From the NCBI GenBank assembly GCA_031316235.1, contig JALDRA010000001.1, positions 240,001 to 272,000 on the forward strand: 32,000 bases of DNA, written 5' to 3'. Of this stretch, positions 1-32,000 are shown piece by piece. A program made the position numbers and the translations under genes. This stretch comes from Candidatus Scalindua sp. (GTDB lineage: Bacteria > Planctomycetota > Brocadiia > Brocadiales > Scalinduaceae). Within the stretch, counting starts at the first letter, position 1. Each line of letters begins with the position of its first letter. The notes under the pieces are model-generated. The model was not told the DNA's origin, did not search any database, and worked only from the letters and a program-made list of their open reading frames with translations.

Positions 1-374
1 AAACCGCCGGTGACCATGGCGACCAGCCCGGAAAGGCCGATGATACGTCCGGCTCGCTCGGGATCGCTTCGGAAAAACTCAGCGACGTGTTTGGTGGCGG
101 TCAGACCAAGGCCGAACCCGGCGAAGACCCCGAACATGCCGACCGTGGACTGGATCATTCCCAGTTCGCCATAGCCCGTCTTGCCCAGCATTCGGGCCAC
201 GAGGACCGATGCGGCAAGCATCAGGCCGCGCGAGATTACCGCCCCGGCCATCGACCAGAACACGCCACGGGCCAAGCGCGACCCTACATCGGAAGCTTTG
301 ATCCTGTTGAGAAAAGGATGAACCACCGAAGGGCAGCAGGTGAATATGGCCTTCTTGACGCCCATATTCACCAT
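1..374 (-). CDS. Polysaccharide/O-antigen flippase (Wzx-type, MOP/PST family), N-terminal part; gene continues past the left edge
   Basis: Absent from the ORF track because it is truncated. My own minus-strand translation from ATG (374..372) gives MVNMGVKKAIF...SRLARGVFWSMAGAVISRGLMLAASVLVARMLGKTGYGELGMIQSTVGMFGVFAGFGLGLTATKHVAEFFRSDPERAGRIIGLSGLVAMVTGG. This matches the N-terminal helix pair typical of PST flippases. The listed + ORF 87..380 is its antisense shadow. The start is uncertain (ATG at 365 is also possible). Confidence 0.6.
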   Translation of the reverse strand, partial: MVNMGVKKAIFTCCPSVVHPFLNRIKASDVGSRLARGVFWSMAGAVISRGLMLAASVLVARMLGKTGYGELGMIQSTVGMFGVFAGFGLGLTATKHVAEFFRSDPERAGRIIGLSGLVAMVTGG

Positions 375-2475: not shown

Positions 2476-2718
2476 ATGGATACGGTTCGTTTAAATGTTA
2501 CCCTTCCAAAAGAGCTGGTCCGACAGCTAGATAAGTTAGTTGGATCTAGAAAAAAGAGCCATTTTATCGCTGAGGCTTTAAAACAAAAGATTAAGAAAAT
2601 CCAGAATGAAGAACTTCAAAAACTTTTAAAAGAAGGCTATAAAGCTACCAAACAGGAGAGTCTTGGTATAGCAAAAGAGTTTGAACCCAATGACCTGGAA
2701 GGGTGGGATGAATATTAA
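2476..2718 (+). CDS. Ribbon-helix-helix (CopG/MazE-type) antitoxin
   Basis: 80 aa. The N-terminus VRLNVTLPKELVRQLDKLVGSRKKSHFIAEALKQ is a classic RHH beta-strand plus helix pattern. It overlaps the toxin start. Confidence 0.8.
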   Translation: MDTVRLNVTLPKELVRQLDKLVGSRKKSHFIAEALKQKIKKIQNEELQKLLKEGYKATKQESLGIAKEFEPNDLEGWDEY

Positions 2719-3052
2719 AAGGGGAGAAATATATCTTGCCATCCTCGATCCAGTTGTGGGAAAAGAGATTTCAAAGACCCGTCCAGTTGTCATTATTTCT
2801 AATGATAAAAACAACGAATTTTCAGGAACTGTTACTATTTTGCCTATCACCTCCAAAAATCTTCAAAAGACTTACCCCTTTGAGGTATTTTTGCCAGAAA
2901 GATCCGGAAATCTTCCCAAAAATTCTAAGGTTAAAGCCGACCAAATCCGTACACTTGATAAAGGTCGCATCGTTACCTTTTTAGGAAAACTTGAAAAGGA
3001 AAAAATGGATCAAATTGAAAAGGCCATAAAGATACATCTTGCATTGTCCTAA
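2708..3052 (+). CDS. mazF: MazF/PemK-family endoribonuclease toxin
   Basis: IKRGEIYLAILDPVVGKEISKTRPVVIISND...ILPITSK...KVKADQIRTLDKGRI is the MazF/PemK signature. I prefer ATG 2708 (MNIKRGE) over the track start 2681. It overlaps the antitoxin stop by 11 nt. Confidence 0.85.
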   Translation: MNIKRGEIYLAILDPVVGKEISKTRPVVIISNDKNNEFSGTVTILPITSKNLQKTYPFEVFLPERSGNLPKNSKVKADQIRTLDKGRIVTFLGKLEKEKMDQIEKAIKIHLALS

Positions 3053-3486: not shown

Positions 3487-3756
3487 AGTGACAGTGTTAA
3501 CAAATCAAGCTTTTTAACTATCTCTGCAGAAAAGACTCCTTGAAGAAAATCTACTACATTTTCTCGTATTAAAAAAGTTTCTTCGAAGAATTTATCATGC
3601 GGATTGTAGATTCCCATCATTTCGGAGATTAAATCTTAGCTCCCCAGTTAAATTAGGTACATGCTTCACTGGGCAAGCAAAGCTCAAAGGGTAAAGTGAG
3701 CTAAAGTATATTAAAGTCCTATGGCGGAGAGCGCAAAAAGCATGGCGTAAAGCGTA

Positions 3757-3930
3757 GAACGTCGTGTATTTTAAGATTTTTTGAAAATTAGTAACCTGAC
3801 GGCTTAAATAATCTAGTTTGTTTAAAAGTTTCTCTAAGGATTCTTTGTTTATTAGATCTCTCATTTCTAATAAAATTAATATGTTGGCGTTCTCCCTGAT
3901 GGAATATATAGATCCCACAGGGCATGGCAC
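3757..3930 (-). pseudogene. Truncated four-helix-bundle (23S rRNA intervening-sequence-type) protein gene
   Basis: ORF 3595..3930 contains IRENANILILLEMRDLINKESLEKLLNKLDYLSRQVTNFQKIL, which resembles the last helices of this family. The N-terminal half is missing, and the 3' part of the ORF runs into word repeats. Confidence 0.4.
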
Positions 3931-4093: not shown

Positions 4094-6700
4094 TTATTTA
4101 TAATAATATCCCTGTCCTTTCTTTGTCTGGTTCAGGACTGCTCCTATTATCTTGGTTTGAGACTCTTTTATGCAACTTACTGCTTCATTGATACCCTTGA
4201 TAGATACTTGCCCTGGTTTTATCACAAAGATAACTCCATCTACCAATGAAAGTAAGGGTTTAAAACTACCCATCGTCTCAAGTATGGGCGGGGCATCAAC
4301 AAGCACTACGTTAAAGTGTTGCTTCAGTATGTCCAAAAACTTTCCAAGGAGTGCGAAATATGATAGACCATCAGGTTTTACACCCACGGTGCCTGCCGGC
4401 AAGAGTGATAGATTTGGTTCATCCAGGGATTGTATGTTTGAGAGTACCTCTCTTTCCAGCAAGCGGCTCCCCCCCATTCGCCCCAAACGACTGATGATTG
4501 GTGCATAATCTTCCTCAAAATGTATTCTCTCATCTTTGAAGGACTCAATGCTGCCTGGTTCATATGTAAAGGTGCCCTGTTTCCAACTAAAAAGTTTCTG
4601 AAGGAGTTCCTCCATCTGCAGTTTAAGCGGACCCTGTAATTGTCCCTGATTAATGTATCCGGCATTGAGAAGGATATATCCTAGAGGCTGACCCGTGCGC
4701 TGGTTTCGATCAAGGGAATCCTTTAACTGATTCTCGGTAATGAAATTCCCATTAAGGAGCATGGTTCCTAATCGATTACGATAAGGGACATCACGGCTCT
4801 GCAATTGAAAGAGACCTCCTTTATCAAAGACAGCCGTCATTCCTTGAGTATCATTTGTGATCGTAAGCTTACCACTCTCTTTTTTTAAAGCAATGACGGA
4901 AAATAGATCATTCACACTGTATTCATCCAGTGTCCCCTGTTCTATTTTCTGGGATAGAACCTGAGTCATAGCCGGAATAAGACCTTTTTCCCCTACACCA
5001 TTTACACTGAACATGTTATGAAGGGATGGCCGCAGTACATCAGCATCTACCATGACCACACGCAGGCCTCCCCTCGCCAGGTTAAGGGCTGATCTTGCAA
5101 GCACTGTGCTCTTACCCTCCCCGGAGGTTGAACTCTCTATCAGAAGCACATGCCCGGACATCCCGGAATGCATCAATGGGAAGCTGGGAACAAGATTGGA
5201 TGAGAAATCATATTCATAATAACCTTGTGCACGTTTCTTCTTTTCATTATGAGGCTCGTCTTCTGGCAATGCAAGTATCTTGCCCCTTTTCAGAGATTCA
5301 TCATAGGGTATCATCCCCAGTACCGCCATCCCCAGAAGCCTCCTCACATCATCCGGGGTTCTCACAGAGTTGTCCACATACTCAAAGAGAAAGGCCAGTC
5401 CCAATGCCGTAAAGGCGCCAACCACAATACCGAGTGCAACATTTACCTTCTTTCGTGGTTTAACCGGACGATTCGGAATAATCGCCTCATCTATCACACT
5501 TATGCTGGCGATCTTTTGGCGATCCATTTCATCTGAAATACGGGCCTCCTCTAATTTTCCTATATAGATTTTGTAGTTATTCTCATTAATTATTTGCTCT
5601 CGTTCCAGATCTCTGAGTCCATCTTCCCAAAGGTCAAGTGTTTGAATCTCCTTATCTAACGCCTTCAATTGCTCTTTGAATTCAGTACTTATAGCCTCCT
5701 GGGATTGGAGCAATGCCATGGCCTTAAGCGCTTCCTGTTCTTTTAAAAAATCTTTTACAAACAGGATTTCTTTTCGTACGTCAGTAACCATGCGGGAATG
5801 GTCTTTATACTGTCTTGTCAGTTCTTTTTCCCTTTGCTGAAGGCCAAACAACCTGACCCTGGCGTTGTCGATTATGTCAGATCCATCTGTTTCAGTATAA
5901 AGCGGCACATCCTCTGCATTGATTTGTGTCTTTATATTCATGGAAGTGAGTTTTTGTCGTAATTCGCCAATCCGATTTTCAGCCATCTTTAATGAGGTGT
6001 CGAATTCAATCCGCTGCCCTAGGAGAAAATTTCTCTGCTCATCAAGAGAGGAAATCTTGTATTCTTGTTTAAAGGCCTCTAATCTGCCTTCCGATTCTTT
6101 CAATATCCTTCTATAGTTCTCCAGTTTTTCCTCCAAAAAAGGAGTTGACTTTGGGTTACTAAAGGTTTGAAGATGTTTCTCTTTGAAAAGCTCAACCAAT
6201 AGATTAACAGATCTGGCTGCAATTTGCGGGTCATAATGTCGGAAGGAAACCTTAATAATACCGGAACCTTTTACAATTTCGGCTGATAAATCACGCTGAA
6301 ATCTTAATACGGCTGATTCCAGAGGGTCCACATCTGCGGGATCAGTATTTATACTATCTGGATAAATAGTTTCTAGTCCTAGCGTAGTTACAGCTTTTTC
6401 AGCAAGGTCCCGGCTGGTAATAATTTCGATCTCTGAATTAAGCATTTCTGTGCGATCAGAAGTGATTATTGGAAGATTGTCATTGCCTACTTCAGGCTTA
6501 TATATATTCTCCCTTCCCGATTTGATAATCAACCTTGTCTCGGCTTCATATATGGGGGTTTGTAGAAAAGTGTAGAGTGCAACCGTAGTTACTACGCTGA
6601 GGAAAATAACAAGGATCTTGTACTTATGCTTGAATATAACTATCAGAAAATCCATGAGAGTAAAATCATGTTCGATAGTAACCGTTTTATCTGTTTCCAT
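4094..6700 (-). CDS. Polysaccharide co-polymerase / BY-type tyrosine kinase (Wzc/GumC-like) with a ~160-aa domain insertion in the kinase domain
   Basis: 868 aa.
- N-terminal Wzz-type TM segment, long coiled-coil periplasmic region, second TM (VNVALGIVVGAFTALGLAFLF).
- Walker A SGEGKST, Walker A' VVMVDADVLRPSLH, Walker B VVLVDAPP.
- C-terminal Tyr cluster GYYYK.
- A' and B are about 245 aa apart (usually about 100) because of an insertion at aa ~586-745.
- SD AGGTGA lies upstream of the ATG. Confidence 0.85.
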   Translation of the reverse strand: METDKTVTIEHDFTLMDFLIVIFKHKYKILVIFLSVVTTVALYTFLQTPIYEAETRLIIKSGRENIYKPEVGNDNLPIITSDRTEMLNSEIEIITSRDLAEKAVTTLGLETIYPDSINTDPADVDPLESAVLRFQRDLSAEIVKGSGIIKVSFRHYDPQIAARSVNLLVELFKEKHLQTFSNPKSTPFLEEKLENYRRILKESEGRLEAFKQEYKISSLDEQRNFLLGQRIEFDTSLKMAENRIGELRQKLTSMNIKTQINAEDVPLYTETDGSDIIDNARVRLFGLQQREKELTRQYKDHSRMVTDVRKEILFVKDFLKEQEALKAMALLQSQEAISTEFKEQLKALDKEIQTLDLWEDGLRDLEREQIINENNYKIYIGKLEEARISDEMDRQKIASISVIDEAIIPNRPVKPRKKVNVALGIVVGAFTALGLAFLFEYVDNSVRTPDDVRRLLGMAVLGMIPYDESLKRGKILALPEDEPHNEKKKRAQGYYEYDFSSNLVPSFPLMHSGMSGHVLLIESSTSGEGKSTVLARSALNLARGGLRVVMVDADVLRPSLHNMFSVNGVGEKGLIPAMTQVLSQKIEQGTLDEYSVNDLFSVIALKKESGKLTITNDTQGMTAVFDKGGLFQLQSRDVPYRNRLGTMLLNGNFITENQLKDSLDRNQRTGQPLGYILLNAGYINQGQLQGPLKLQMEELLQKLFSWKQGTFTYEPGSIESFKDERIHFEEDYAPIISRLGRMGGSRLLEREVLSNIQSLDEPNLSLLPAGTVGVKPDGLSYFALLGKFLDILKQHFNVVLVDAPPILETMGSFKPLLSLVDGVIFVIKPGQVSIKGINEAVSCIKESQTKIIGAVLNQTKKGQGYYYK

Positions 6701-6722
6701 ATTTAATTCACCTGTACTATAA

Positions 6723-7373
6723 TTAAAAATATGCCTCTTTCACATAGACAATATCATTAGGCACAAGATTAATGTCCTGAGTCAAGTCAGTACCATTTAT
6801 AACTTCTTTTATATTCACCGGGATGATTTGCCTTGTATTATCAACATTGCGGCGTATGACTATTACTTTGCTGTGTCTAGCTGCATCTTTAAAACCTCCT
6901 GCCTGTAAGATAGACTGCAATACCGTCATGGGGCCTTCCAAATTGATCATTTGTGGCTCCTCCACTTCGCCACCCACATAAACTTTTTGTTTGGAGCGAA
7001 GAACTATTACTGTAATATCAGGTTTTTCGAGTATTTGTGAATATTTTTCCTTTAGCAGGTTTGTAAATTCTTTTACCGTCATACCGGCGGCCATGACTCC
7101 CTGTACCAATTGCAGAGAAACACGACCATCAGGCAGAACTATTATCCCTTCTCCATTTATCCCTTCTTCATTTAAATTGGGGTTATAGAAAAATTTAATG
7201 CTTAGTTGATCTCCTGGTTGGAGTAAGTATTCATCATAATTCTGGTTGTTCTGTGTCTGATCTTCTGCGGAAGAAACGTTAGTGGCTTTTTCACCTACAG
7301 CTTCAAACAATGCTTGTAAAAGCATAATAGTAATGACCACAAAAACTAGAACTGTTTTTTTCAGCATTCGCAT
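6723..7373 (-). CDS. Polysaccharide export protein (Wza-like, Poly_export + SLBB)
   Basis: Motifs include LQPGDQLSIKFF...VLPDGRVSLQLVQGVMAAGMTVKEFTNLLKEKY...ITVIV...KVYVGGEV..P....EGPMTVLQSILQAGG. Track start 7454 is a TTG. I prefer ATG 7373 (MRMLKKTVLVFVVITIMLLQALF), which gives a signal peptide. Confidence 0.85.
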   Translation of the reverse strand: MRMLKKTVLVFVVITIMLLQALFEAVGEKATNVSSAEDQTQNNQNYDEYLLQPGDQLSIKFFYNPNLNEEGINGEGIIVLPDGRVSLQLVQGVMAAGMTVKEFTNLLKEKYSQILEKPDITVIVLRSKQKVYVGGEVEEPQMINLEGPMTVLQSILQAGGFKDAARHSKVIVIRRNVDNTRQIIPVNIKEVINGTDLTQDINLVPNDIVYVKEAYF

Positions 7374-7520
7374 AAATAGTTTTGTAAGTTTGAAGCCTGC
7401 CTGTAAGTAATCATTTGTTTGCTTGCCAGGCACGCAGACGGCTTGAATTCCCAACTATATTTAGTCATTTTGTGTAAAAACTTTGCCTTATATAGTGCAG
7501 ACACAGCTCCGCCCTCTCAG

Positions 7521-7679
7521 TTACAGAATACGTTTTGTTTGAAACGTATATGAACTTCCTCTTAAAACAAACTTTTCTATAGCTACACCTTGCACAATCA
7601 GGGAAATATCACCTTCATCTCCCCACATACATCCTTGTACGTTCAAAGACACGTCTATTTTGTGCCTCAAATCACCCAT
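7521..7679 (-). CDS. Unlisted 52-aa ORF between the transferase and wza-like genes (hypothetical)
   Basis: My own translation is MGDLRHKIDVSLNVQGCMWGDEGDISLIVQGVAIEKFVLRGSSYTFQTKRIL*. AAGGGAAG lies 4 nt before the ATG. It is below the track length cut-off and I recognise no family. Confidence 0.2.
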   Translation of the reverse strand: MGDLRHKIDVSLNVQGCMWGDEGDISLIVQGVAIEKFVLRGSSYTFQTKRIL

Positions 7680-7726
7680 GGCTTCCCTTGTCCATAAGGA
7701 TTCAATAACAGAACAAATCTGCTAAC

Positions 7727-9160
7727 TTACAAATAACATTTTAAAATGTCTCTCTGCTCTTTACCCATTTCTCTAAATTTAAACCCATATATGTACGAGC
7801 CATTATCCCTGTGCATCCACACAACTTCTGCAATCGTACTCAATCCTTTGACATTATTATTTTCAGGTAAGACTAAATTTATTTTGTGTTCACAGTTTGT
7901 CAAATATTCATCTGTCTTGGCCGCAAAACCATTAAAACTGATATTCATCAATTCGCTGGTATTGAACAGTTCCCTCTTATCAGTTTCTATCATGCATAAA
8001 ATCTTCGAACATCGGGTGTTACGCAAATAAATTCTTTTATTACTTATTTTAACCATCTTGTGCATGGGCTCCATGGGCGCTGTTTCAGTCTGCACATGAT
8101 GCCAACCTTTTTTACCCCTAACCTTAAATCTCAGTAACTTTTTTATACAAAGCGAAAAGGTAAAATGTACGATAAAAAATGCTAAAAAGATTGAAAACAG
8201 ATAATATTCGGGTATTCTGTAAATAGTACCTGCAATCCCCAGGGCCGAAAATATTGTTGTTGTTAAGGCAATAATCAAAACAACATATTTTTTCTTGAAG
8301 CCTAATCTTAATAAAATATGGTGGATATGCGACTTGTCAGCAGAGAAAGGATTTTTGCCGTTAATTATTCTCCTGAGAGAAACACTGGTAAGATCAGCTA
8401 TAGGAAAAGCGAGTATTAATAGAGGGACAAATGGCGGAACAACACTATTTTGTTTTTGACTTATAGCAATAGATAAAAAAGCCATAGAAAAGCCTAGCAA
8501 AAAGCTACCGGCATCGCCTAAGAATAATATTGATGGATTCCAGTTATATCTGAGAAAGGCAATAACACAACCGCTCAGTGCAATACTTAATAACAGATAC
8601 AAAGGCTGGTTGTTTATGTACGCAAGTATACCAAAAGATATAAAGGCAATAGTAGAAACTGTACCCACAAGCCCATCTACACCGTCAATCATATTGGTTG
8701 CGTTAATAACGCCTACAATATAAAGAATAGTCACCGGGACAGCGAAAATACCAAGATTAACTGGACCAAAAGAGAGAATATTACCAAAAGACAGCAGTAC
8801 AATTTTTCCAGAATGAATTACGATAATAGCCGTGATTATTTGCGCCAGTAATTTCCATTTGGGAGTTAGCTTTTTATAATCATCACAAAAACCTGTTAAG
8901 AGAACGATAAACATACCCACATAAAATGAGAAAATTTGTTTCGTTTCAATATACAAGAAACAACTGACAGAAAGGGATATCGCAATTGCAATGCCTCCAA
9001 TTAACGGCCTTCCAACTTTGTGAACTTTACGTTTGTTTGAATAATCCAATAAACCTATTTTATTAGCATACAAACACATTCTCGGAATTAAGATATACGT
9101 AATTACGAGAGACAACACAAAGATTTGGCAGCCACATATAACTGAAAATTGAATACCCAT
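7727..9160 (-). CDS. Polyprenyl-phosphate sugar-1-phosphate transferase (WecA/MraY, glycosyltransferase family 4) fused to a C-terminal PilZ domain
   Basis: 477 aa.
- Multi-TM N-terminal body with KIGLLDYSNKRKVH..PLIGG, NATNMIDGVDGL and GDAGS motifs.
- C-terminal ~106 aa (nt 7730-8047) carries the PilZ motifs RIYLR (RxxxR) and NISFNG ((D/N)xSxxG). Confidence 0.85.
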   Translation of the reverse strand: MGIQFSVICGCQIFVLSLVITYILIPRMCLYANKIGLLDYSNKRKVHKVGRPLIGGIAIAISLSVSCFLYIETKQIFSFYVGMFIVLLTGFCDDYKKLTPKWKLLAQIITAIIVIHSGKIVLLSFGNILSFGPVNLGIFAVPVTILYIVGVINATNMIDGVDGLVGTVSTIAFISFGILAYINNQPLYLLLSIALSGCVIAFLRYNWNPSILFLGDAGSFLLGFSMAFLSIAISQKQNSVVPPFVPLLILAFPIADLTSVSLRRIINGKNPFSADKSHIHHILLRLGFKKKYVVLIIALTTTIFSALGIAGTIYRIPEYYLFSIFLAFFIVHFTFSLCIKKLLRFKVRGKKGWHHVQTETAPMEPMHKMVKISNKRIYLRNTRCSKILCMIETDKRELFNTSELMNISFNGFAAKTDEYLTNCEHKINLVLPENNNVKGLSTIAEVVWMHRDNGSYIYGFKFREMGKEQRDILKCYL

Positions 9161-9472
9161 TATTTTTTTAAAGCTTATTTTAGAAAGTGACTATAGAGCA
9201 GAGCGTAAAGAACATGGCGCAAACATGCGCAACTCTTTCAAAATGACTACCTCTCCCCCACCAGAATGACTATCAACCGGCCTGTGCCGGTTTACAGGTA
9301 CTTTGTACCCGGACAACGTCATTCAGTCAAACGGACCGAGGCTTGAGATTGGATCGTAGACTGTAGTCAGGCCGGGCCCGTCCGAGAACGGATTCATACC
9401 GACGGGTAACTACATCCCTGTAATTGATCAGGGCTAACGCACAGAAAACATGATTTTGAAATTCCTCTGCAT

Positions 9473-10219
9473 TTAAACATTCCTATGCTTGCACACATAC
9501 TCACTGATCATCTCAATATGGGTTTGTTGCATATTCTTAAAACGTACACCTGCGTATTGCCCACTGTTCACACTAACCTCCCAAACACATTCTCCACTTG
9601 CCTCAATGAGCCTTGCCCCTGCGTTTAAGCTGAAATTAATATTACAGAGTTCCTTGCCAACCATTGCAGGCCCAGTAACACTCTCTTCTTTCTTGTTAAT
9701 ATTGGGATTAATTTGATCAATCAAGATTCCCCCTACACTAAGGTTCACAATAACTGCCCTATAAGTAATCTTACCTTTACCAGAGACGTGGCCTTTAAAC
9801 TCTGTTTTTAGAGACGTGTCAACCCTTCCAAAGCATCTCCTTTTAACGTCGGTCTTGAAAGGATTCATTTCTTCAAGAATTTCCTTTTCAAACAGCAATA
9901 CAGCCTCATTAGGCTCCCGGCAATTGTATAACTTAATAATGTCCTCTTTTCCTGATATCTTGAGTAGGTTTTGTATTTCTAACCCTACATTGAATAATTT
10001 AATACACATACCACGGTTTATAAAATGTTCCAAAACATTGAGACCCAACCCATCAGCTTTTTTCGTATGTTTCAGGTTTATTATTTTTATAAATCTGCCC
10101 TCATCCAGTGATGAATACAAAAACTCTTCAAGTTGAATGGCACCTCTGCCCGTTAATTCACCATTTATCTCAAGAATCTCTATCTCTGGGTTGCTATGGA
10201 AATAAGTTGAAATCTTCAC
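9473..10219 (-). CDS. STAS (anti-sigma-factor-antagonist-like) + PilZ two-domain protein
   Basis: 248 aa with a GTG start.
- aa 1-105 are STAS-like (EILEINGELTG...IINLKHTKKADGLGLNVLEHFI...CIKLFNV..EIQNLLKISG).
- aa ~122-240 are PilZ, with RCFGR (RxxxR) and NLSVGG ((D/N)xSxxG). Confidence 0.75.
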   Translation of the reverse strand: MKISTYFHSNPEIEILEINGELTGRGAIQLEEFLYSSLDEGRFIKIINLKHTKKADGLGLNVLEHFINRGMCIKLFNVGLEIQNLLKISGKEDIIKLYNCREPNEAVLLFEKEILEEMNPFKTDVKRRCFGRVDTSLKTEFKGHVSGKGKITYRAVIVNLSVGGILIDQINPNINKKEESVTGPAMVGKELCNINFSLNAGARLIEASGECVWEVSVNSGQYAGVRFKNMQQTHIEMISEYVCKHRNV

Positions 10220-10474
10220 TATTTTTTTGTTTTTGGTTTTATTTAGTCACTCTTCAGCAATAGCCTAATCACAAAAAGCATACCAATGGATAAAAATTAA
10301 TGAGATACTTCGTAAGTCTCTATTCATAAACGCACGAGAGTGCAAAAAGTCTGGCAAGAAGTTTTCACAAATAGAGATCAAGACGTTCGGTTTCGAACTC
10401 TTCTCCTTTAATTTCGCTTCAACATATTGACTAACCTCTTGTAATGCTTTCAGATAGCAAGCCGTTTAGGAACG

Positions 10475-10508
10475 CACACTAACCGTACGTATTCGTACGG
10501 TTAGTGTG
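10475..10508. other. Perfect 15-bp stem / 4-nt loop hairpin
   Basis: cacactaaccgtacg-tatt-cgtacggttagtgtg. No flanking T/A run on either strand, so it is not a canonical terminator. Confidence 0.9.
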
Positions 10509-11023
10509 GCAAGCTATGACTGGAGGTATTGACTCTTTAGTCCTCTGCCTGTTTAAGATTGTTTCAACGCTTCAACGTTATGCGGCTATTCAATGTTAAA
10601 GGATTAAATGCCTGGCGTGTCTTAACCGTTCACGGGTCCACCGAAAAATTTCGGAATTCAGATTGCGGATTGCAGAATAAAAGAGAGGAAATAATAGTTC
10701 ACCGCAAAGATACTAAAAAAGCCAAGGAAAGGGAAAGTATAAAAAAATGAAGTGAATTGTTAATATCCTTTGAAACTTAGCGGGCTTTACGCCCGTGGCA
10801 GATTCCAACAATATGAAAGTTTTTGAAATCCGAATTCTACATTCCGAAATTCGAAGTATCAGGGTAAGTGTAAACCGTGAACTGGCAGCAATGAACATTC
10901 ACGAATCATATGAGAAGCATTAATGAATATGGTCAGGAAGGAAGAGATTTCTTGTTTACAACCTTAGGCGGTGTAATTTCTTAGTGCAACCTGCACGTTT
11001 CTTTTGCTTGCAGGAAACGCTAC

Positions 11024-12568
11024 TTACGAAATTGCTTTTTTATAGATATTGTATTTTTCAATCCTACGGTTCAAGCTTGCACGGCTGATTCCCAATTCTC
11101 TAGCAGCTCTGGTTTTGTTCCATTTCTCCTTTTGAAGCATAAACCCAGTCATTTCCTTATCAGCAGTACTTATAACATCTTGGAGTTTTTTACTCTCGTT
11201 ATCGCCGCTTATAGATGGTTCCTTAAAAACCGCTTTTGTCGCTTCCAAGTAAAGGTGTTCGGGTTCGAGAGTCGGACTCCTTCTTGACATGGTAACCAGG
11301 CTTTCTACCGTATTTTTAAGTTCCCGAACATTACCCGGCCAATCATGTTCATTAATTATTTTGATCAGGTCCGGACTCAGCCTTTTCCCCCCAATATTTT
11401 TTTTATCCGTATAATATTCTAAAAAACTAAAGAAAAGAGGCTCGATATCTTCTCTCCTCCTTCTTAGCGGAGGCAATACAATTCGAAGAGTGTTAATTCG
11501 AAAGAGGAGATCTCTCCGGAATAATCCCGCTTCTACCATCTCTGATAAATCCTTATTAGTTGCAGTGATAACCCTTACATCTACCTCCCTTTCCTTAACA
11601 CCTCCTACCCTGTAAAAAGTTCCGTTTTCAAGCACTCTCAATAGCTTACCTTGTACATCGATACTTAAATCCCCTATTTCATCGAGGAACAAGGTACCAC
11701 CATCAGCCATTTCAAACAGCCCTTTTTTCTCCGTCACAGCACCGGTAAAAGCACCTTTTTCGTGTCCAAATAACTCTGAACTCAAGATCGTATCACTGAA
11801 CGAAGAGCAATTCTGTATAACAAATGCCTTATCTTTGCGAATACTGTTATAATGTACAGCAGTCGCTATGAGCTCTTTGCCTGTTCCAGTTTCTCCTAAA
11901 ATCAAAACCGGACTTTCGGAGTACTCAATCAGATCCAATTTATCAAAGATCTTTTCCATCGACATGCTTATACCAATTATGCCTTTATATTTTCCGTTAC
12001 GCCTCCTATCAATAAGGAGTGTCTGTTTCTTTATTATATTATCCTCATTAAACAAAGTTTCACAAAAAGATGAGACATCTTTTGCAACCATTTTCATAAG
12101 ACGAAGTACATACTCTTCCGTGTGACTATCAGATATCCGTATTTTATCATATCGATTCAGTACCTCAGTTTTAGAAAGACCAAGACTTGTCATTCTTCTT
12201 ATACTTTCTTCTCTTTGATCATTTGTTAATTGAAGTTGCATCCCGGAACACACCAAATAACCAAAACAATTACCCATTACAATTAATGGAACAGAAAAAA
12301 TCTTCATGTTTTCGCAATGTTTGCACACAAAGGTTTTTTGAGACCCATTTGATGCCTTGAGATTATGTGTTCGAAATACAATACACCCTTCTGCTGCTTT
12401 TTTATTTGAATGGATTAAGGAACAGAGAGGATTTTGTATTTGGGAATCATTAAATTGGCAGTTGCCAAATTCAACGTAAAAATGGGTATCAAGCCCCCAC
12501 CAATCACGGGCAATATTTCTAAATATCTTTACAACATGAGAATTAATTACCTTATTCCATTTTTCCAT
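11024..12568 (-). CDS. Sigma-54-dependent transcriptional activator (bEBP) with PocR-like Cys-rich N-terminal sensor and Fis-type HTH
   Basis: 514 aa.
- AAA+ core: GETGTGKE, the GAFTGA loop in [40 protein letters not shown].
- C-terminal HTH: [21 protein letters not shown].
- N-terminal ~170 aa (NPLCSLIHS...EGCIVFR...[30 protein letters not shown]) resemble PocR sensory domains. No receiver domain. Confidence 0.9.
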
Positions 12569-13559: not shown

Positions 13560-13967
13560 CTATAGAGTCTCAATTTTCAGACCGGGTATCTTTTTAAAAT
13601 TATCGGCGTTGCCGGTCAGCACAGCAAAACTATGGGTTATCGCCATCGCTGCAATTTGTAGATCATGGACGTTGCCAAGAGACTTGCTCCGTGGCTTCAG
13701 AAAATAGGCATATAGCACGGCATAAGTTCTGGCTACCACTTCTGAAAAGTTGAGAACAGGCACCTTGGCGACAATACCCTCGACAAAGGAGGAGCGTTGT
13801 ATCCGTACATCAGGGGACTTGGCTACATGGACACCAGCAAGTAATTCTGAAAGAGTGATAGCTGAAATATAAGCTTCACCATAATGGGAAAAAGCTGCCA
13901 GATCATTCAGATCTAACCGATCATTTTCCGCGTCAATGAAGATATCCGCATCAACAATTAATCCCAT
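13560..13967 (-). CDS. vapC: PIN-domain toxin (VapC family)
   Basis: 135 aa. The N-terminus LIVDADIFIDAEN carries the PIN acidic residue. It overlaps the upstream antitoxin gene by 10 nt. Confidence 0.85.
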   Translation of the reverse strand: MGLIVDADIFIDAENDRLDLNDLAAFSHYGEAYISAITLSELLAGVHVAKSPDVRIQRSSFVEGIVAKVPVLNFSEVVARTYAVLYAYFLKPRSKSLGNVHDLQIAAMAITHSFAVLTGNADNFKKIPGLKIETL

Positions 13968-14239
13968 GGATTCTCCGGAAGTGTAGCAATTTTTCGAATG
14001 GCTTTCAGATCTTCGGCCATTGCTGTCCCCTCTTCCTCCAACCTTGGCAACGATCTGAGTAAATCGGCCAGCTTAGTAACAGGGTATCCCGCCTTGGGGG
14101 AAGGTCTTAACTCAGCCACGGTTTGGGAACCCTTGGTAATATACAAGCTACGTCCCGACATCCGCACTTTGTCAATCACAACCGATAGATTTCTTACCAT
14201 GTCGGTCGCAGTGATAGTTTCGTACACCTTGTTTTGCAT
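13958..14239 (-). CDS. Phd/YefM-type antitoxin
   Basis: 93 aa. ITATDMVRNLSVVIDKVRMSGRSLYITKGSQTVAELRP is a typical Phd/YefM N-terminal fold pattern. SD GAGGTGG lies 7 nt before the ATG. Confidence 0.8.
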   Translation of the reverse strand: MQNKVYETITATDMVRNLSVVIDKVRMSGRSLYITKGSQTVAELRPSPKAGYPVTKLADLLRSLPRLEEEGTAMAEDLKAIRKIATLPENPWD

Positions 14240-30078: not shown

Positions 30079-32000
30079 TCAATATCCGTAGTAGGTGGAG
30101 TCTTTTTTCGCCTGATTCAATATAGTGCCTACGACACGTGTATCAGACTCTTTCAGGAAATTGGCTGCTTGATTCACCATTTTGACAGAAGCATGTCCAG
30201 ACTTGACAACAAAGATTACGCCATCAACTAAAGGTAGCAATGGCCTCACACTGCCTAATGCTTCCAACAATGGCGGTGCATCTATAAGTACGATATCGAA
30301 GCGTTGTTTCAGGATATCCAATACCTTTGTAAGGAACGTAAAATACTGTGGACCTTCATTTCTCAATTCATCACTACCTGAAGTTAATAAAGAAAGGCTC
30401 AATCCCTCAATGGATTTAAGACATGAGAGAACTTCATTTTCAACCAATCTGCTGCCCACCATACGGCCCAAACGCTTGATAATGGATGAGTAATCTTCCT
30501 GGAAATGAATTCTTCTGTCCTCATAGGTCTCCACATGTCCTGGTTCGAAAGCATATTCACCCTGTTTCCAGCTGAACAACTTTTGAAGGTGTTCTTCCAT
30601 TTGAAGTTTTAAAGGGCCCTGTAATTGACTTTGATTAATATAGCCTGAGTTAATGAGAATATATCCCATAGGCAGACCGGTACGTTTGTTTCGATCCAGG
30701 GCATCTTTCAATTGATTCTCGTCAATAAATCCACCGCGAAGAAGCATTGTTCCCAACCGATTGGCAAAGGGAACTTCCTGGCTCTGGAGGTGAACCAGCC
30801 GGCCATTTTCAAAGACAACAGTCATAGCTTGAGAATCATCTTTTACCACAAGTTTTCCACTCTGCTTTTTCAAAGAAATAAGAAAGAACAGATCATCGAT
30901 ACTGCACGTATCTAAAGTCCCATGATCCAGGTTCTTTGACAGTATCTTTGTCATAATATTCAACAATCCATTCCGATTCCCATTATCTAAACCAAACTTG
31001 TTATGCAGAGACGGCCGTTGCAGATCTGCATCAACCATTGCTACACGCAGCCCGCCCTTTGCCAGATTTATGGCTGAATTTGCAAGTACTGTTGTCTTTC
31101 CTTCACCAACAGTTGCACTTTCGATCAAGAGTATTTGTCCAGACATCCCCGATTCCAGGAGAGGCAATCCGCATATCAGACTACTTGAAACATTATAATA
31201 TCTCCCACTTCTCACCTTGTCTTTCTTCTGCTCGTTAAGTTTCAACTGGGACCCATTCGTCGGTAAAACAAGCGACTCTGTCCTGTTCAGATACCTGTTA
31301 TATGGTAACATGCCTATAACAGGCAGTTCAAGATGCTGCATGATGTCCTCTGGAGTCCTGATCGTTTTGTCCATATATTCAATGAAAAAAGTAAATCCCA
31401 AACCAAAAAACAGCCCCATGACTACAGCCAGTGAAATATTAAAGATAACATTTGGTTTGACAGGCAGACGGGGAATAACCGCAGCATCAACGATGCTGAT
31501 GTTTTGGCTCTCCATATTGCCAGTAAGATTGATTTCTTTGGCTTGTTTCAGCAGGATATCATAAATTGCCTTATCACTTTCCGCCTCCAATTCCAACATA
31601 CCATAATTTGTAAACTTACCATCATACAAATCAGCCTGCGAATCCTTCTCCGCCAGAATCTGTGTTTCAGTGCCCACATCAACCACTGCTCGGTCTAATT
31701 CTATCCTCATCGACTCTTTTAACCGACCCGCTTCATCAACAATACTCTTTTCCAGCTGGCTTATGCTTGAATCAATCTCAATGATCTTTGGATGCTTAGG
31801 ACCATACTTGGTATTCAGCTCCATTTTATTCGTCCTTAGCTGAACTAATTGTCTGCGCAGATCCTGGATGACATAGTGGTCTTTCACTTCCGGCAACGCG
31901 AAAAAACTGTCACTATCCACTGGATGGAAATCAATCTCATTAAATTCAAATTCGCTGATTGAAAGGATAGACTTTGCAAGCTTAATTTTATGATCTCTCA
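30079..32000 (-). CDS. Second polysaccharide co-polymerase / BY-kinase paralogue with the same kinase-domain insertion; 5' end lies beyond the right edge
   Basis: The track starts it at a GTG (31920), but the frame stays open to nt 32000 (my translation ...RDHKIKLAKSILSISEFEFNEIDFHPVDSDS...).
- Walker A VGEGKTT, A' VAMVDADLQRPSLH, B IVLIDAPP, Tyr tail STYYGY.
- The insertion (aa ~332-492 of the listed ORF, nt 30445-30927) is collinear with that of 4094..6700. Confidence 0.85.
   Translation of the reverse strand, partial: RDHKIKLAKSILSISEFEFNEIDFHPVDSDSFFALPEVKDHYVIQDLRRQLVQLRTNKMELNTKYGPKHPKIIEIDSSISQLEKSIVDEAGRLKESMRIELDRAVVDVGTETQILAEKDSQADLYDGKFTNYGMLELEAESDKAIYDILLKQAKEINLTGNMESQNISIVDAAVIPRLPVKPNVIFNISLAVVMGLFFGLGFTFFIEYMDKTIRTPEDIMQHLELPVIGMLPYNRYLNRTESLVLPTNGSQLKLNEQKKDKVRSGRYYNVSSSLICGLPLLESGMSGQILLIESATVGEGKTTVLANSAINLAKGGLRVAMVDADLQRPSLHNKFGLDNGNRNGLLNIMTKILSKNLDHGTLDTCSIDDLFFLISLKKQSGKLVVKDDSQAMTVVFENGRLVHLQSQEVPFANRLGTMLLRGGFIDENQLKDALDRNKRTGLPMGYILINSGYINQSQLQGPLKLQMEEHLQKLFSWKQGEYAFEPGHVETYEDRRIHFQEDYSSIIKRLGRMVGSRLVENEVLSCLKSIEGLSLSLLTSGSDELRNEGPQYFTFLTKVLDILKQRFDIVLIDAPPLLEALGSVRPLLPLVDGVIFVVKSGHASVKMVNQAANFLKESDTRVVGTILNQAKKDSTYYGY

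Follow-up and report, generated by a model that had tools for sequence, protein, structure and literature searches.

Predicted c-di-GMP receptor modules on the transferase, the tyrosine kinase and a STAS protein of a polysaccharide cluster in Candidatus Scalindua

Direct control of polysaccharide synthesis by c-di-GMP (short for cyclic dimeric GMP) is textbook knowledge for the synthase-dependent production of cellulose, alginate and Pel. A 2025 mBio paper likewise treats such control as established for synthase-dependent systems and calls the post-translational control of Wzx/Wzy pathways "incompletely understood." The gene cluster described here raises the question of whether c-di-GMP could also act directly on the machinery of a Wzx/Wzy-type pathway. 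It lies at positions 4094-12568, on the minus strand, of a 32-kb stretch of contig JALDRA010000001.1 (positions 240,001 to 272,000; this whole stretch is referred to below as the window) from Candidatus Scalindua, a marine anammox planctomycete. The cluster consists of five co-directional open reading frames (ORFs) encoding a PocR-sigma54 activator, a STAS-PilZ protein, a WecA-type transferase with a PilZ domain, a short Wza-like exporter and a Wzc-type tyrosine kinase. These genes, with the same coordinates and domains, had been proposed in a first-pass annotation made from the sequence, and profile searches of all five proteins with Pfam and NCBIfam bore out the calls. The five genes and the relevant parts of the kinase are as follows:

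11024..12568, minus strand: PocR-sensor sigma54 enhancer-binding protein, 514 aa (PocR 40.6 bits, Sigma54_activat 217.8 bits, AAA_lid_14, C-terminal HTH_8)
9473..10219, minus strand: STAS-PilZ protein, 248 aa (PilZ 28.4 bits, cut-off 22.5; STAS 19.5 bits, below its cut-off of 22.6)
7727..9160, minus strand: WecA-family polyprenyl-phosphate N-acetylhexosamine-1-phosphate (HexNAc-1-P) transferase with a C-terminal PilZ domain, 477 aa (Glycos_transf_4 136 bits; PilZ 32.1 bits, cut-off 22.5)
6723..7454, minus strand: short outer-membrane polysaccharide export (OPX) protein, Wza-like (Poly_export 67.7 bits, SLBB_2, SLBB)
4094..6700, minus strand: polysaccharide co-polymerase (PCP) of the PCP-2a/Wzc type with a bacterial tyrosine kinase (BY-kinase), 868 aa (Wzz, GNVR and a split ParA/CbiA/AAA_31 P-loop)
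4457..4972, minus strand: PATAN (DUF4388) insert of the kinase, 172 residues (577-748), between Walker A' and Walker B (DUF4388 65.9 bits)
4616..4774, minus strand: tandem MshEN_N-type motif within the insert, 53 residues (643-695), RLGTMLLNGNFITENQLKDSLDRN-QRTGQ-PLGYILLNAGYINQGQLQGPLKLQ

Our results point to predicted c-di-GMP receptor modules on three of these proteins, namely, within the fold of the kinase, as a tail on the transferase and as one half of the STAS-PilZ protein. At least one of the three quite probably binds c-di-GMP; that all three are working receptors is a tentative proposition and a somewhat doubtful one.

Receptor-like modules on the kinase, the transferase and the STAS protein

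The kinase has a Wzz domain (residues 13-106) and a GNVR domain (374-438), hydrophobic segments at about residues 18-48 and 418-443, a Walker A motif (GEGKST, 527-532), a Walker B motif (VVLVDAPP, 798-805) and three C-terminal tyrosines (YYY, 865-867). Compared with the PDB, its family profile matched Wzc (7nhr, E 1e-93) and also CapAB, Etk, VpsO and BceF. An AlphaFold model of residues 500-868, built on 83 homologues, had a predicted local distance difference test score (pLDDT) of 90 and a predicted template modelling score (pTM) of 0.88, and its kinase core matched CapAB 4jlv (E 4e-8), Wzc 3la6, Etk, BceF and VpsO in Foldseek, with the CapAB and Wzc matches at around 1e-7. Against TIGR03029, the EpsG model, the kinase scored 49.9 bits (cut-off 313.8).

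The P-loop fold of this kinase is interrupted by the PATAN insert. When the kinase is aligned by phmmer with S. aureus CapB1 (4jlv), a clean break falls between CapB residues 143 and 144, which places the insert beyond the GL motif that comes after Walker A' and ahead of the segment that runs to Walker B. In the model, the insert is made up of a beta-rich part and four helices at the MshEN motif (model residues 141-151, 157-170, 174-180 and 186-205, with a block-mean pLDDT of about 85-97). A two-repeat alpha-helical insertion is also what the PATAN literature describes, the same repeat being found N-terminally in the ATPases of type II secretion and type IV pili. The spacing of the motif is exactly 24+5+24 (residues 643-666, 667-671 and 672-695), the layout that defines the c-di-GMP-binding MshEN_N unit (Wang et al. 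2016), and the 29-residue offset between the two motifs is found in relatives as well. The NCBIfam model NF053729 (cyclic di-GMP-binding domain, MshE-related) matched the kinase with 44.5 bits, above its cut-off of 38, and there was a weak match of the insert to the NfrB profile. The family profile aligned with residues 7-63 of VcMshE (5htl), the ligand-binding stretch, with an E-value of 8e-13 and with the c-di-GMP domains of T. thermophilus PilF (6f8l) with an E-value of 1e-23; for the single window kinase sequence, the E-value against 5htl was 2.5e-4.

Eleven of the 14 key MshEN_N positions (R9, L10, G11, G18, L25, L29 and Q32 in the first motif and R38, L39, G40, G47, L54, L58 and Q61 in the second) are kept in the window kinase, including the equivalents of VcMshE L10, G11, L25, L29, L39, G40, G47, L54, L58 and Q61. 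The hydrophobic residues and G11/G40 are reported to be critical, while changes of R9, D12 and Q32 alter the affinity less than about 5-fold (Wang et al. 2016), and all of the decisive residues are retained here. Over the family of 88 to 89 sequences, conservation within the insert falls on the ligand contacts, i.e., L2, G3, G10, L17, L21 and Q24 of both repeats. The insert is a PATAN domain with an MshEN_N-type clip and not a T2SSE_N domain. The tandem MshEN-like motif that had been noticed inside the kinase therefore stands, with NF053729 above its cut-off, but as part of a PATAN/DUF4388 domain and not as a separate T2SSE_N domain, and with three deviating positions that are taken up below. 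The same insert is present in a second kinase of the window:

30079..32000, minus strand: paralogous Wzc-type kinase with the same insert, ending at the window edge (DUF4388 76.6 bits, GNVR, ParA/AAA_31)

This paralogue aligns as one contiguous match with the C-terminal part of the first kinase, and its motif I is unaltered (RLGTMLLRGGFI..., RGG).

The transferase has the catalytic motifs DD93-94, N156xxDGxDG (156-164) and H278IHH (278-281), at positions nearly the same as those in E. coli WecA. With 223.6 bits against the TIGR02380 wecA equivalog (cut-off 326), it is best regarded as a family member of the WecA-type enzymes, with a putative substrate. Its PilZ domain, encoded at nt 7730-8053, carries both ligand motifs, R376IYLR380 and N406ISFNG411, and is predicted to be located in the cytoplasm because the hydropathy profile shows two hydrophobic, presumably transmembrane, segments after the cytoplasmic HIHH loop. 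WecA-PilZ fusions form about 40 database clusters, down to 38% identity and including one from a metagenome-assembled genome (MAG) of the Nitrospirae, and wherever a longer contig exists, the fusion gene lies among polysaccharide genes. The second PilZ motif is canonical (NISxxG) throughout the Scalindua clade of the fusion. In another locus (L051, 188-1822; P0260), a WecA-type transferase of about 50% identity has a C-terminal GGDEF domain in place of PilZ and adjoins genes of the GDP-mannose pathway.

The third module is found in a small soluble protein with a STAS domain at about residues 2-116 and a PilZ domain at about residues 127-245. Its ligand motifs, R128CFGR132 and N159LSVGG164, are intact, and both are kept in 36 of 38 family members, the two exceptions being short and probably partial. 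The claim of two PilZ domains with intact RxxxR and (D/N)xSxxG motifs thus proved right, both domains scoring above the Pfam cut-off with their motifs located in the sequence; NCBI labels both proteins "PilZ domain-containing protein." The STAS-PilZ family comprises 38 database clusters (43-100% identity), and all named members come from Scalindua, Brocadiaceae or Planctomycetes. The STAS assignment is settled despite the sub-threshold Pfam score of the window protein, since PF01740 is matched by 19 of the 38 homologues and since the N-terminal half of the AlphaFold model (pLDDT 82.8) resembles SpoIIAA, RsbV and other anti-sigma antagonists in Foldseek (TM score 0.72-0.77; 4hyl, 1th8 and 6m36). 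The C-terminal half resembles the c-di-GMP-bound PilZ domains of Alg44, MotI, PP4397 and YcgR.

The first-pass annotation had proposed a STAS partner switch for this protein. The STAS domain is confirmed by the fold matches, but a classical phosphorylation-dependent switch is not: the DSSG loop of SpoIIAA reads D56-G57-L-G here, Gly57 is invariant in 31 relatives in the family alignment, and it aligns with the first serine of that loop, the phosphorylated residue. No RsbW/SpoIIAB-type kinase or PP2C phosphatase was found among the scanned window ORFs. We therefore rejected the classical reading. With no serine to phosphorylate, any partner-switch input must come from the fused PilZ domain.

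The fourth gene product, the Wza-like exporter, is listed as an ORF that begins with TTG. Its true start is probably Met28 (nt 7373), which would give a protein of about 216 aa with a signal peptide; this start, which is followed by a hydrophobic stretch resembling a signal peptide, is preferred because homologues are 198-216 aa long. The best NCBIfam matches, both below cut-off, were to the PEP-CTERM export protein and EpsY. E. coli Wza has 379 aa. The Scalindua protein is probably without the outer-membrane helix domain of E. coli Wza, as in exporters of the EpsY/PEP-CTERM type. A partner beta-barrel gene was not found in the window; in Desulfosarcina, a BBP2_2 porin gene adjoins the Wza gene.

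Conservation of the cluster and its regulatory DNA

An exhaustive HMMER search of 1.84 billion representative sequences, followed by local re-alignment, gave 88 sequences that match the kinase and the insert as one contiguous stretch, either as fused Wzc-type proteins of 850-950 aa or as stand-alone kinases of about 400 aa. The close subfamily of the insert (PLGY...GPLKLQ), to which the more divergent inserts of the stand-alone kinases do not belong, was sought in one genome per species, and 41 loci were identified. The insert-bearing kinase is present in the anammox genera Scalindua, Brocadia (including B. pituitae and B. sapporoensis), Jettenia, Kuenenia, Anammoxibacter and Loosdrechtia; in Desulfobacterales, with Desulfosarcina variabilis (complete genome), Desulfatitalea and Desulfosudis; and in Nitrospirae, Deferribacteres and several further MAG lineages. 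In nearly all of the 41 loci, a Wza-like gene lies directly upstream of the kinase gene.

The complete five-gene cluster was found in two other Scalindua assemblies (L006 and L007), with upstream housekeeping neighbours as in the window (YkuD, ThiF, a 454-aa protein and an M20 peptidase); the STAS-PilZ proteins there are only 58% identical to the window protein. Being syntenic in other genomes, the arrangement is not a product of chance. Partial versions occur in other Scalindua and Brocadia loci, so that the co-conservation of the genes in relatives, which the first-pass annotation had set as a test of its proposal, was found. STAS-PilZ, (transferase), Wza and the insert-bearing kinase follow one another in this order in L001, L004 and L027, with a Bac_transf enzyme in place of WecA-PilZ in L004 and, downstream of the kinase, in L001 and with no transferase identified between STAS-PilZ and Wza in L027. 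Downstream of the kinase, L001 continues with two Polysacc_synt genes, glycosyltransferases, sugar-modifying enzymes and a sulfotransferase. A Brocadia locus (L020) has the PocR activator, STAS-PilZ, a sugar dehydratase and the insert-bearing kinase in order. Scalindua and Brocadia are the genera in which STAS-PilZ was found, and wherever a PocR activator accompanies it, the two lie side by side; the triple receptor arrangement was found only in Scalindua. In Desulfosarcina, the kinase module has as its neighbours a beta-barrel porin, Wza and a small Bac_transf.

Two side observations concern these loci. The locus closest to the window in the genome scan (L009, Ca. Scalindua RBC_AMX3, kinase 93% identical) has no STAS-PilZ detected within 3.6 kb upstream of WecA-PilZ and few long ORFs downstream of the kinase, and it is for these reasons taken to be rearranged or degraded relative to the window. 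The Bac_transf proteins of L004 (792-1991) and L001 (5067-6308) have an N-terminal domain of about 200 aa with no Pfam match, which in the PDB comes closest to a GGDEF diguanylate cyclase (6d9m, E 0.1); RKVD falls at the RxxD I-site in the alignment, and another sequence stands in place of the GGDEF motif. This domain may be a PelD-like degenerate receptor, which at an E-value of this size is a lead and nothing firmer.

The DNA upstream of the STAS-PilZ gene has the following elements:

10475..10508, no strand: UAS1, distal candidate enhancer site, a perfect 34-bp palindrome with GTACG-N4-CGTAC at 10485-10498
10385..10398, no strand: UAS2, proximal candidate enhancer site, GTTCG-N4-CGAAC, 100 bp from UAS1
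10271..10285, minus strand: sigma54-like -24/-12 element TGGTATGCTTTTTGT, from comparative alignment, with the STAS-PilZ start codon about 50 bp downstream

UAS1 and UAS2 are the sole exact matches to GTWCG-N4-CGWAC in the 32-kb window, and with one mismatch allowed, shuffled sequences gave a mean of 1.10 matches. Palindromes with N5 or N6 spacing gave nothing; N4 is the right spacing. The palindrome pair, 100-103 bp apart, is kept in L006, L007 and L008 and absent elsewhere in those loci; the pair is inside a conserved alignment block of the upstream regions, and the core of the UAS1 palindrome lies at an equal distance in the three loci. The four upstream regions that were aligned, from the window and three related loci, all keep the -24/-12 element as TGG(T/C)ATG(C/T)TTTTTGT, and TGGYAY-N5-TTGY has two matches in the window, this element being one. 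It was the comparative alignment alone that revealed the conserved TGGYATG-N4-TTGT element: the canonical sigma54 consensus TGGCAC-N5-TTGC with two mismatches gave 20 matches against 21.8 expected, which is uninformative, and a promoter and terminator scan of the window stayed at background level. The activator has the motifs of its class (GAFTGA at residues 272-277, Walker A at 225-232), and an orthologue lies at the equivalent position in L006, L007, L008 and the Brocadia locus L020. Together, the element and the palindromes are arranged as one would expect of a sigma54 promoter and the enhancer sites of the activator encoded next to it, a function that we propose from the sequence. Between the activator gene and these candidate enhancer sites lies a long intergenic region, which also holds a 31-nt inverted repeat (10647-10677 and 10821-10851, 81% complementary, arms 143 nt apart) and repeated AATTTCGGAA-like words.

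A two-level model and its alternatives

On balance, we favor a model in which the cluster forms the core, for regulation, initiation and export, of a Wzx/Wzy-type surface-polysaccharide pathway that is controlled at two levels, by transcription and by c-di-GMP acting on the machinery, and we hold this reading as a whole with moderate confidence. The label "Wzx/Wzy-type" would follow from the PCP-2a kinase, the OPX protein and a flippase fragment that the first-pass annotation had reported and that is indeed a Polysacc_synt match:

1..374, minus strand: Wzx-type flippase, N-terminal fragment (Polysacc_synt, Pfam 48.3 bits), downstream of the cluster and beyond toxin-antitoxin genes

At the first level, the PocR activator, sensing some small-molecule signal, would bind both palindromes, about 110 and 210 bp upstream of the -24/-12 promoter, and this promoter would drive the STAS-PilZ gene and probably the three downstream genes as well, if these form an operon. 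At the second level, the PilZ tail of the transferase would gate the first committed step, the transfer of HexNAc-1-P to undecaprenyl phosphate (Und-P). The PATAN/MshEN insert would couple c-di-GMP to the cycle of oligomerization and autophosphorylation of the kinase and thus to polymerization and to export via the Wza-like protein; since the insert lies within the P-loop fold, a movement induced by the ligand could plausibly affect ring assembly or trans-phosphorylation. The STAS-PilZ protein may serve as a soluble adaptor in which c-di-GMP binding to PilZ replaces phosphorylation as the switch of the STAS interaction, most likely with the transferase or the kinase as its target. The direction of regulation would presumably be activation at high c-di-GMP. 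From the domains, motifs, insert position, conservation and synteny that we observe, we infer the ligand binding, this direction, the STAS target and the nature of the polymer made.

Several findings weigh against this model. No Wzy polymerase was seen in the window, and the earlier remark that no GGDEF, EAL or HD-GYP gene is visible holds for the scanned window ORFs of at least 100 aa that were judged plausible genes. The -12 dinucleotide of the candidate promoter is GT and not the canonical GC. The Walker A' motif of the kinase is a variant, DADVLR (residues 552-557, in VVMVDADVLRP), with the arginine displaced by one residue compared to DGDMRKP in CapB, and with DxDxxR instead of DxDxR, kinase competence is not certain. 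In distant WecA-PilZ relatives, the second PilZ motif is often (D/N)xGxxG, with glycine for serine. The initiating enzyme in the sister clusters is Bac_transf and not WecA-PilZ, and the Desulfobacterales loci have the kinase module only; for these two reasons, the three-point design is to be seen as lineage-specific, while the kinase module is a widespread element.

The insert itself is where an alternative to the favored model gains most. The PilZ domains might be the only sensors of c-di-GMP, with the PATAN/alpha-clip insert of the kinase as a nucleotide-independent docking module, for partners such as the transferase, the polymerase, STAS-PilZ or a pilus-type machinery, and with its MshEN likeness due to shared fold ancestry. 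PATAN domains are protein-interaction modules, the alpha-clip has been described as an interaction unit, and cyanobacterial PATAN domains bind PilB and PilC; moreover, some MshEN-like proteins, e.g., XpsE, do not bind c-di-GMP (Wang et al. 2016). The window kinase has substitutions at three positions related to the ligand, G18 to N, Q32 to N and R38 to P (VcMshE numbering), and motif II begins with P instead of R in about half of the insert family. G18 is reported to be needed for a helix turn, and the relaxed MshEN_N motif, which tolerates P at position 1 as well as N at position 24, leaves no room for N in place of G18 (Wang et al. 2016). The G18-to-N change is common to the closest orthologues; GG is found there in the paralogue at 30079-32000 and in most relatives. 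We nevertheless consider the docking explanation unlikely, for the residues conserved in the insert family are the c-di-GMP contacts of VcMshE, the spacer of exactly 5 residues is kept, the NF053729 cut-off is passed, and the P at position 1 is within the published relaxed motif.

It seems quite improbable that the modules bind c-di-GMP only to localize or assemble the machinery or to feed back on transcription, for example, through STAS-PilZ modulating the PocR activator. Such a role would fit with the linkage of STAS-PilZ to the PocR activator, which is tighter than that of any other gene (L006, L007, L008 and L020), with its occurrence without an adjacent transferase (L008) and as an orphan (L005) and with the small effect of c-di-GMP on the ATPase activity of MshE in vitro (Wang et al. 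2016). However, the covalent fusion of PilZ to the transferase and of MshEN_N to the kinase speaks for a direct effect on these proteins, and SypA and All4160, discussed below, act post-transcriptionally. That the receptor-like domains are degenerate remnants in an ordinary, transcriptionally regulated capsule or exopolysaccharide (EPS) locus would agree with the absence of a cyclase or phosphodiesterase gene nearby, the sub-threshold STAS match in the window and the serine-to-glycine change in distant WecA-PilZ proteins, which suggests relaxed constraint there, but it is very hard to credit when the binding motifs are under purifying selection (36 of 38 STAS-PilZ proteins, the Scalindua WecA-PilZ clade and the kinase family) and the architectures persist across six named anammox genera and other lineages.

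Neighboring genes and known systems

The cluster is flanked by toxin-antitoxin modules at 952-1567, 2476-3052 and 13560-14239 (two PIN toxins and one MazF toxin, with adjacent small ORFs taken as putative antitoxins), which separate the kinase from the downstream flippase gene. An ORF at 3595-3930 weakly matches the "23S rRNA intervening sequence protein" PF05635 (E 0.084), and small PF05635 genes are interspersed among the EPS genes in related Scalindua loci (L001, L006 and L007), with up to four copies in L006. Rfam and tRNA scans of the window gave no matches. An XrtA/PEP-CTERM-associated EPS locus was considered and rejected, as every NCBIfam equivalog score fell below its cut-off (chain-length determinant, 134.8 of 278.9; export protein, 122.9 of 180; kinase, 59.7 of 230.7; regulator, 284 of 502.6) and no exosortase was found in the window.

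The first-pass annotation had offered c-di-GMP gating of such a pathway as something not known to be described. This has to be narrowed on one point: the pairing of MshEN_N with a BY-kinase was tabulated in 2016, when the EpsG chain-length kinase of Methylobacillus was catalogued, in silico only, as "MshEN_N - AAA_31" (Wang et al. 2016, Suppl. Table 4). On the other point it stands, as our full-text literature search, outside of which the PilZ review by Galperin & Chou (2020) fell, found no report of c-di-GMP binding by a BY-kinase, a WecA-type transferase, a STAS-PilZ protein or the Wzx/Wzy machinery. All components are of known kinds, and this is not a categorically new system. What is new is the internal PATAN/MshEN insertion in the kinase, the fusion of a non-phosphorylatable STAS domain to PilZ and the presence of both, together with a PilZ-tailed priming transferase, in a conserved and putatively sigma54-controlled cluster.

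Should all three modules act as proposed, this would be the first Wzx/Wzy-type pathway for which direct gating of the machinery by c-di-GMP is shown. The insert would turn a bacterial tyrosine kinase into a c-di-GMP-dependent enzyme, PilZ would switch an Und-P-priming transferase, and STAS-PilZ would be a new kind of partner switch, with nucleotide binding in place of serine phosphorylation. In a review, c-di-GMP is cited as promoting the aggregation of anammox bacteria. With the kinase variant present in six named anammox genera and in Desulfobacterales, the cluster would provide a molecular handle on c-di-GMP-driven granulation of anammox biomass and, for anammox and wastewater engineering, could explain the reported link at the molecular level. 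The cluster offers three conserved candidates for a direct connection between c-di-GMP and a Wzx/Wzy pathway, each with defined residues to mutate, and the hypothesis is testable: Desulfosarcina variabilis is a cultured carrier of the kinase variant, and all of the proteins are small enough to be expressed.

Among known systems, the nearest parallel to the kinase is EpsF/EpsG of Methylobacillus sp. 12S, an EPS BY-kinase-type P-loop ATPase with an MshEN_N tandem motif, whose link to c-di-GMP likewise comes from the sequence. In EpsG, however, MshEN_N is N-terminal to the ATPase of a split kinase, whereas here it is inside a PATAN domain within the P-loop fold of a fused PCP-2a protein. With E. 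coli Wza-Wzc, S. aureus CapAB and V. cholerae VpsO, the Scalindua kinase shares Wzz/GNVR, two membrane segments, Walker A and B motifs alongside a Walker A'-like one, a C-terminal tyrosine cluster and an adjacent OPX gene; it differs in the 172-residue PATAN/MshEN insert, the DxDxxR form of the Walker A'-like motif and its only three C-terminal tyrosines, and the OPX protein is short. Cyanobacterial PatA, PixG and PixE also have a PATAN (DUF4388) domain with a two-repeat alpha-helical insertion, but in those proteins the domain lies on the N-terminal side of a receiver domain and makes contact with the pilus motor, while in Scalindua it interrupts a tyrosine kinase from within.

For the regulatory side, the syp locus of Vibrio fischeri is similar in having a sigma54 activator, SypG, with enhancer sites, next to a small STAS protein, SypA, which is encoded by the first gene and is needed to control the syp polysaccharide after transcription. 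In contrast to our cluster, SypA is switched by SypE through phosphorylation of Ser56; the Scalindua protein has an invariant glycine at the equivalent position and a fused PilZ domain, no SypE-like gene is present, and the syp activator has a receiver domain instead of a PocR sensor. Post-translational control of the initiating transferase in a Wzx/Wzy-type pathway is likewise known from Anabaena All4160 and Synechocystis XssP, in which a STAS domain is fused to the transferase (STAS-Bac_transf), and from Myxococcus, where the small regulator EpsW activates the initiating transferase EpsZ. All4160 and XssP use a STAS phosphoserine and EpsW-EpsZ a response-regulator aspartate, while the input predicted here is c-di-GMP via PilZ, on a polytopic WecA-type transferase. 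Finally, BcsA and Alg44 (PilZ) and E. coli NfrB (MshEN), the last a c-di-GMP-dependent exopolysaccharide synthase/glycosyltransferase cited as an MshEN-type receptor, carry the same receptor domains on proteins that make polysaccharides. Because of analogues such as SypA, All4160, EpsW-EpsZ and NfrB, the proposed mechanism is a reasonable one. The difference is that BcsA, Alg44 and NfrB belong to synthase-dependent systems with the receptor on or beside a processive glycosyltransferase, while in Scalindua the predicted receptors are placed on an Und-P-priming transferase, a PCP/BY-kinase and a STAS adaptor.

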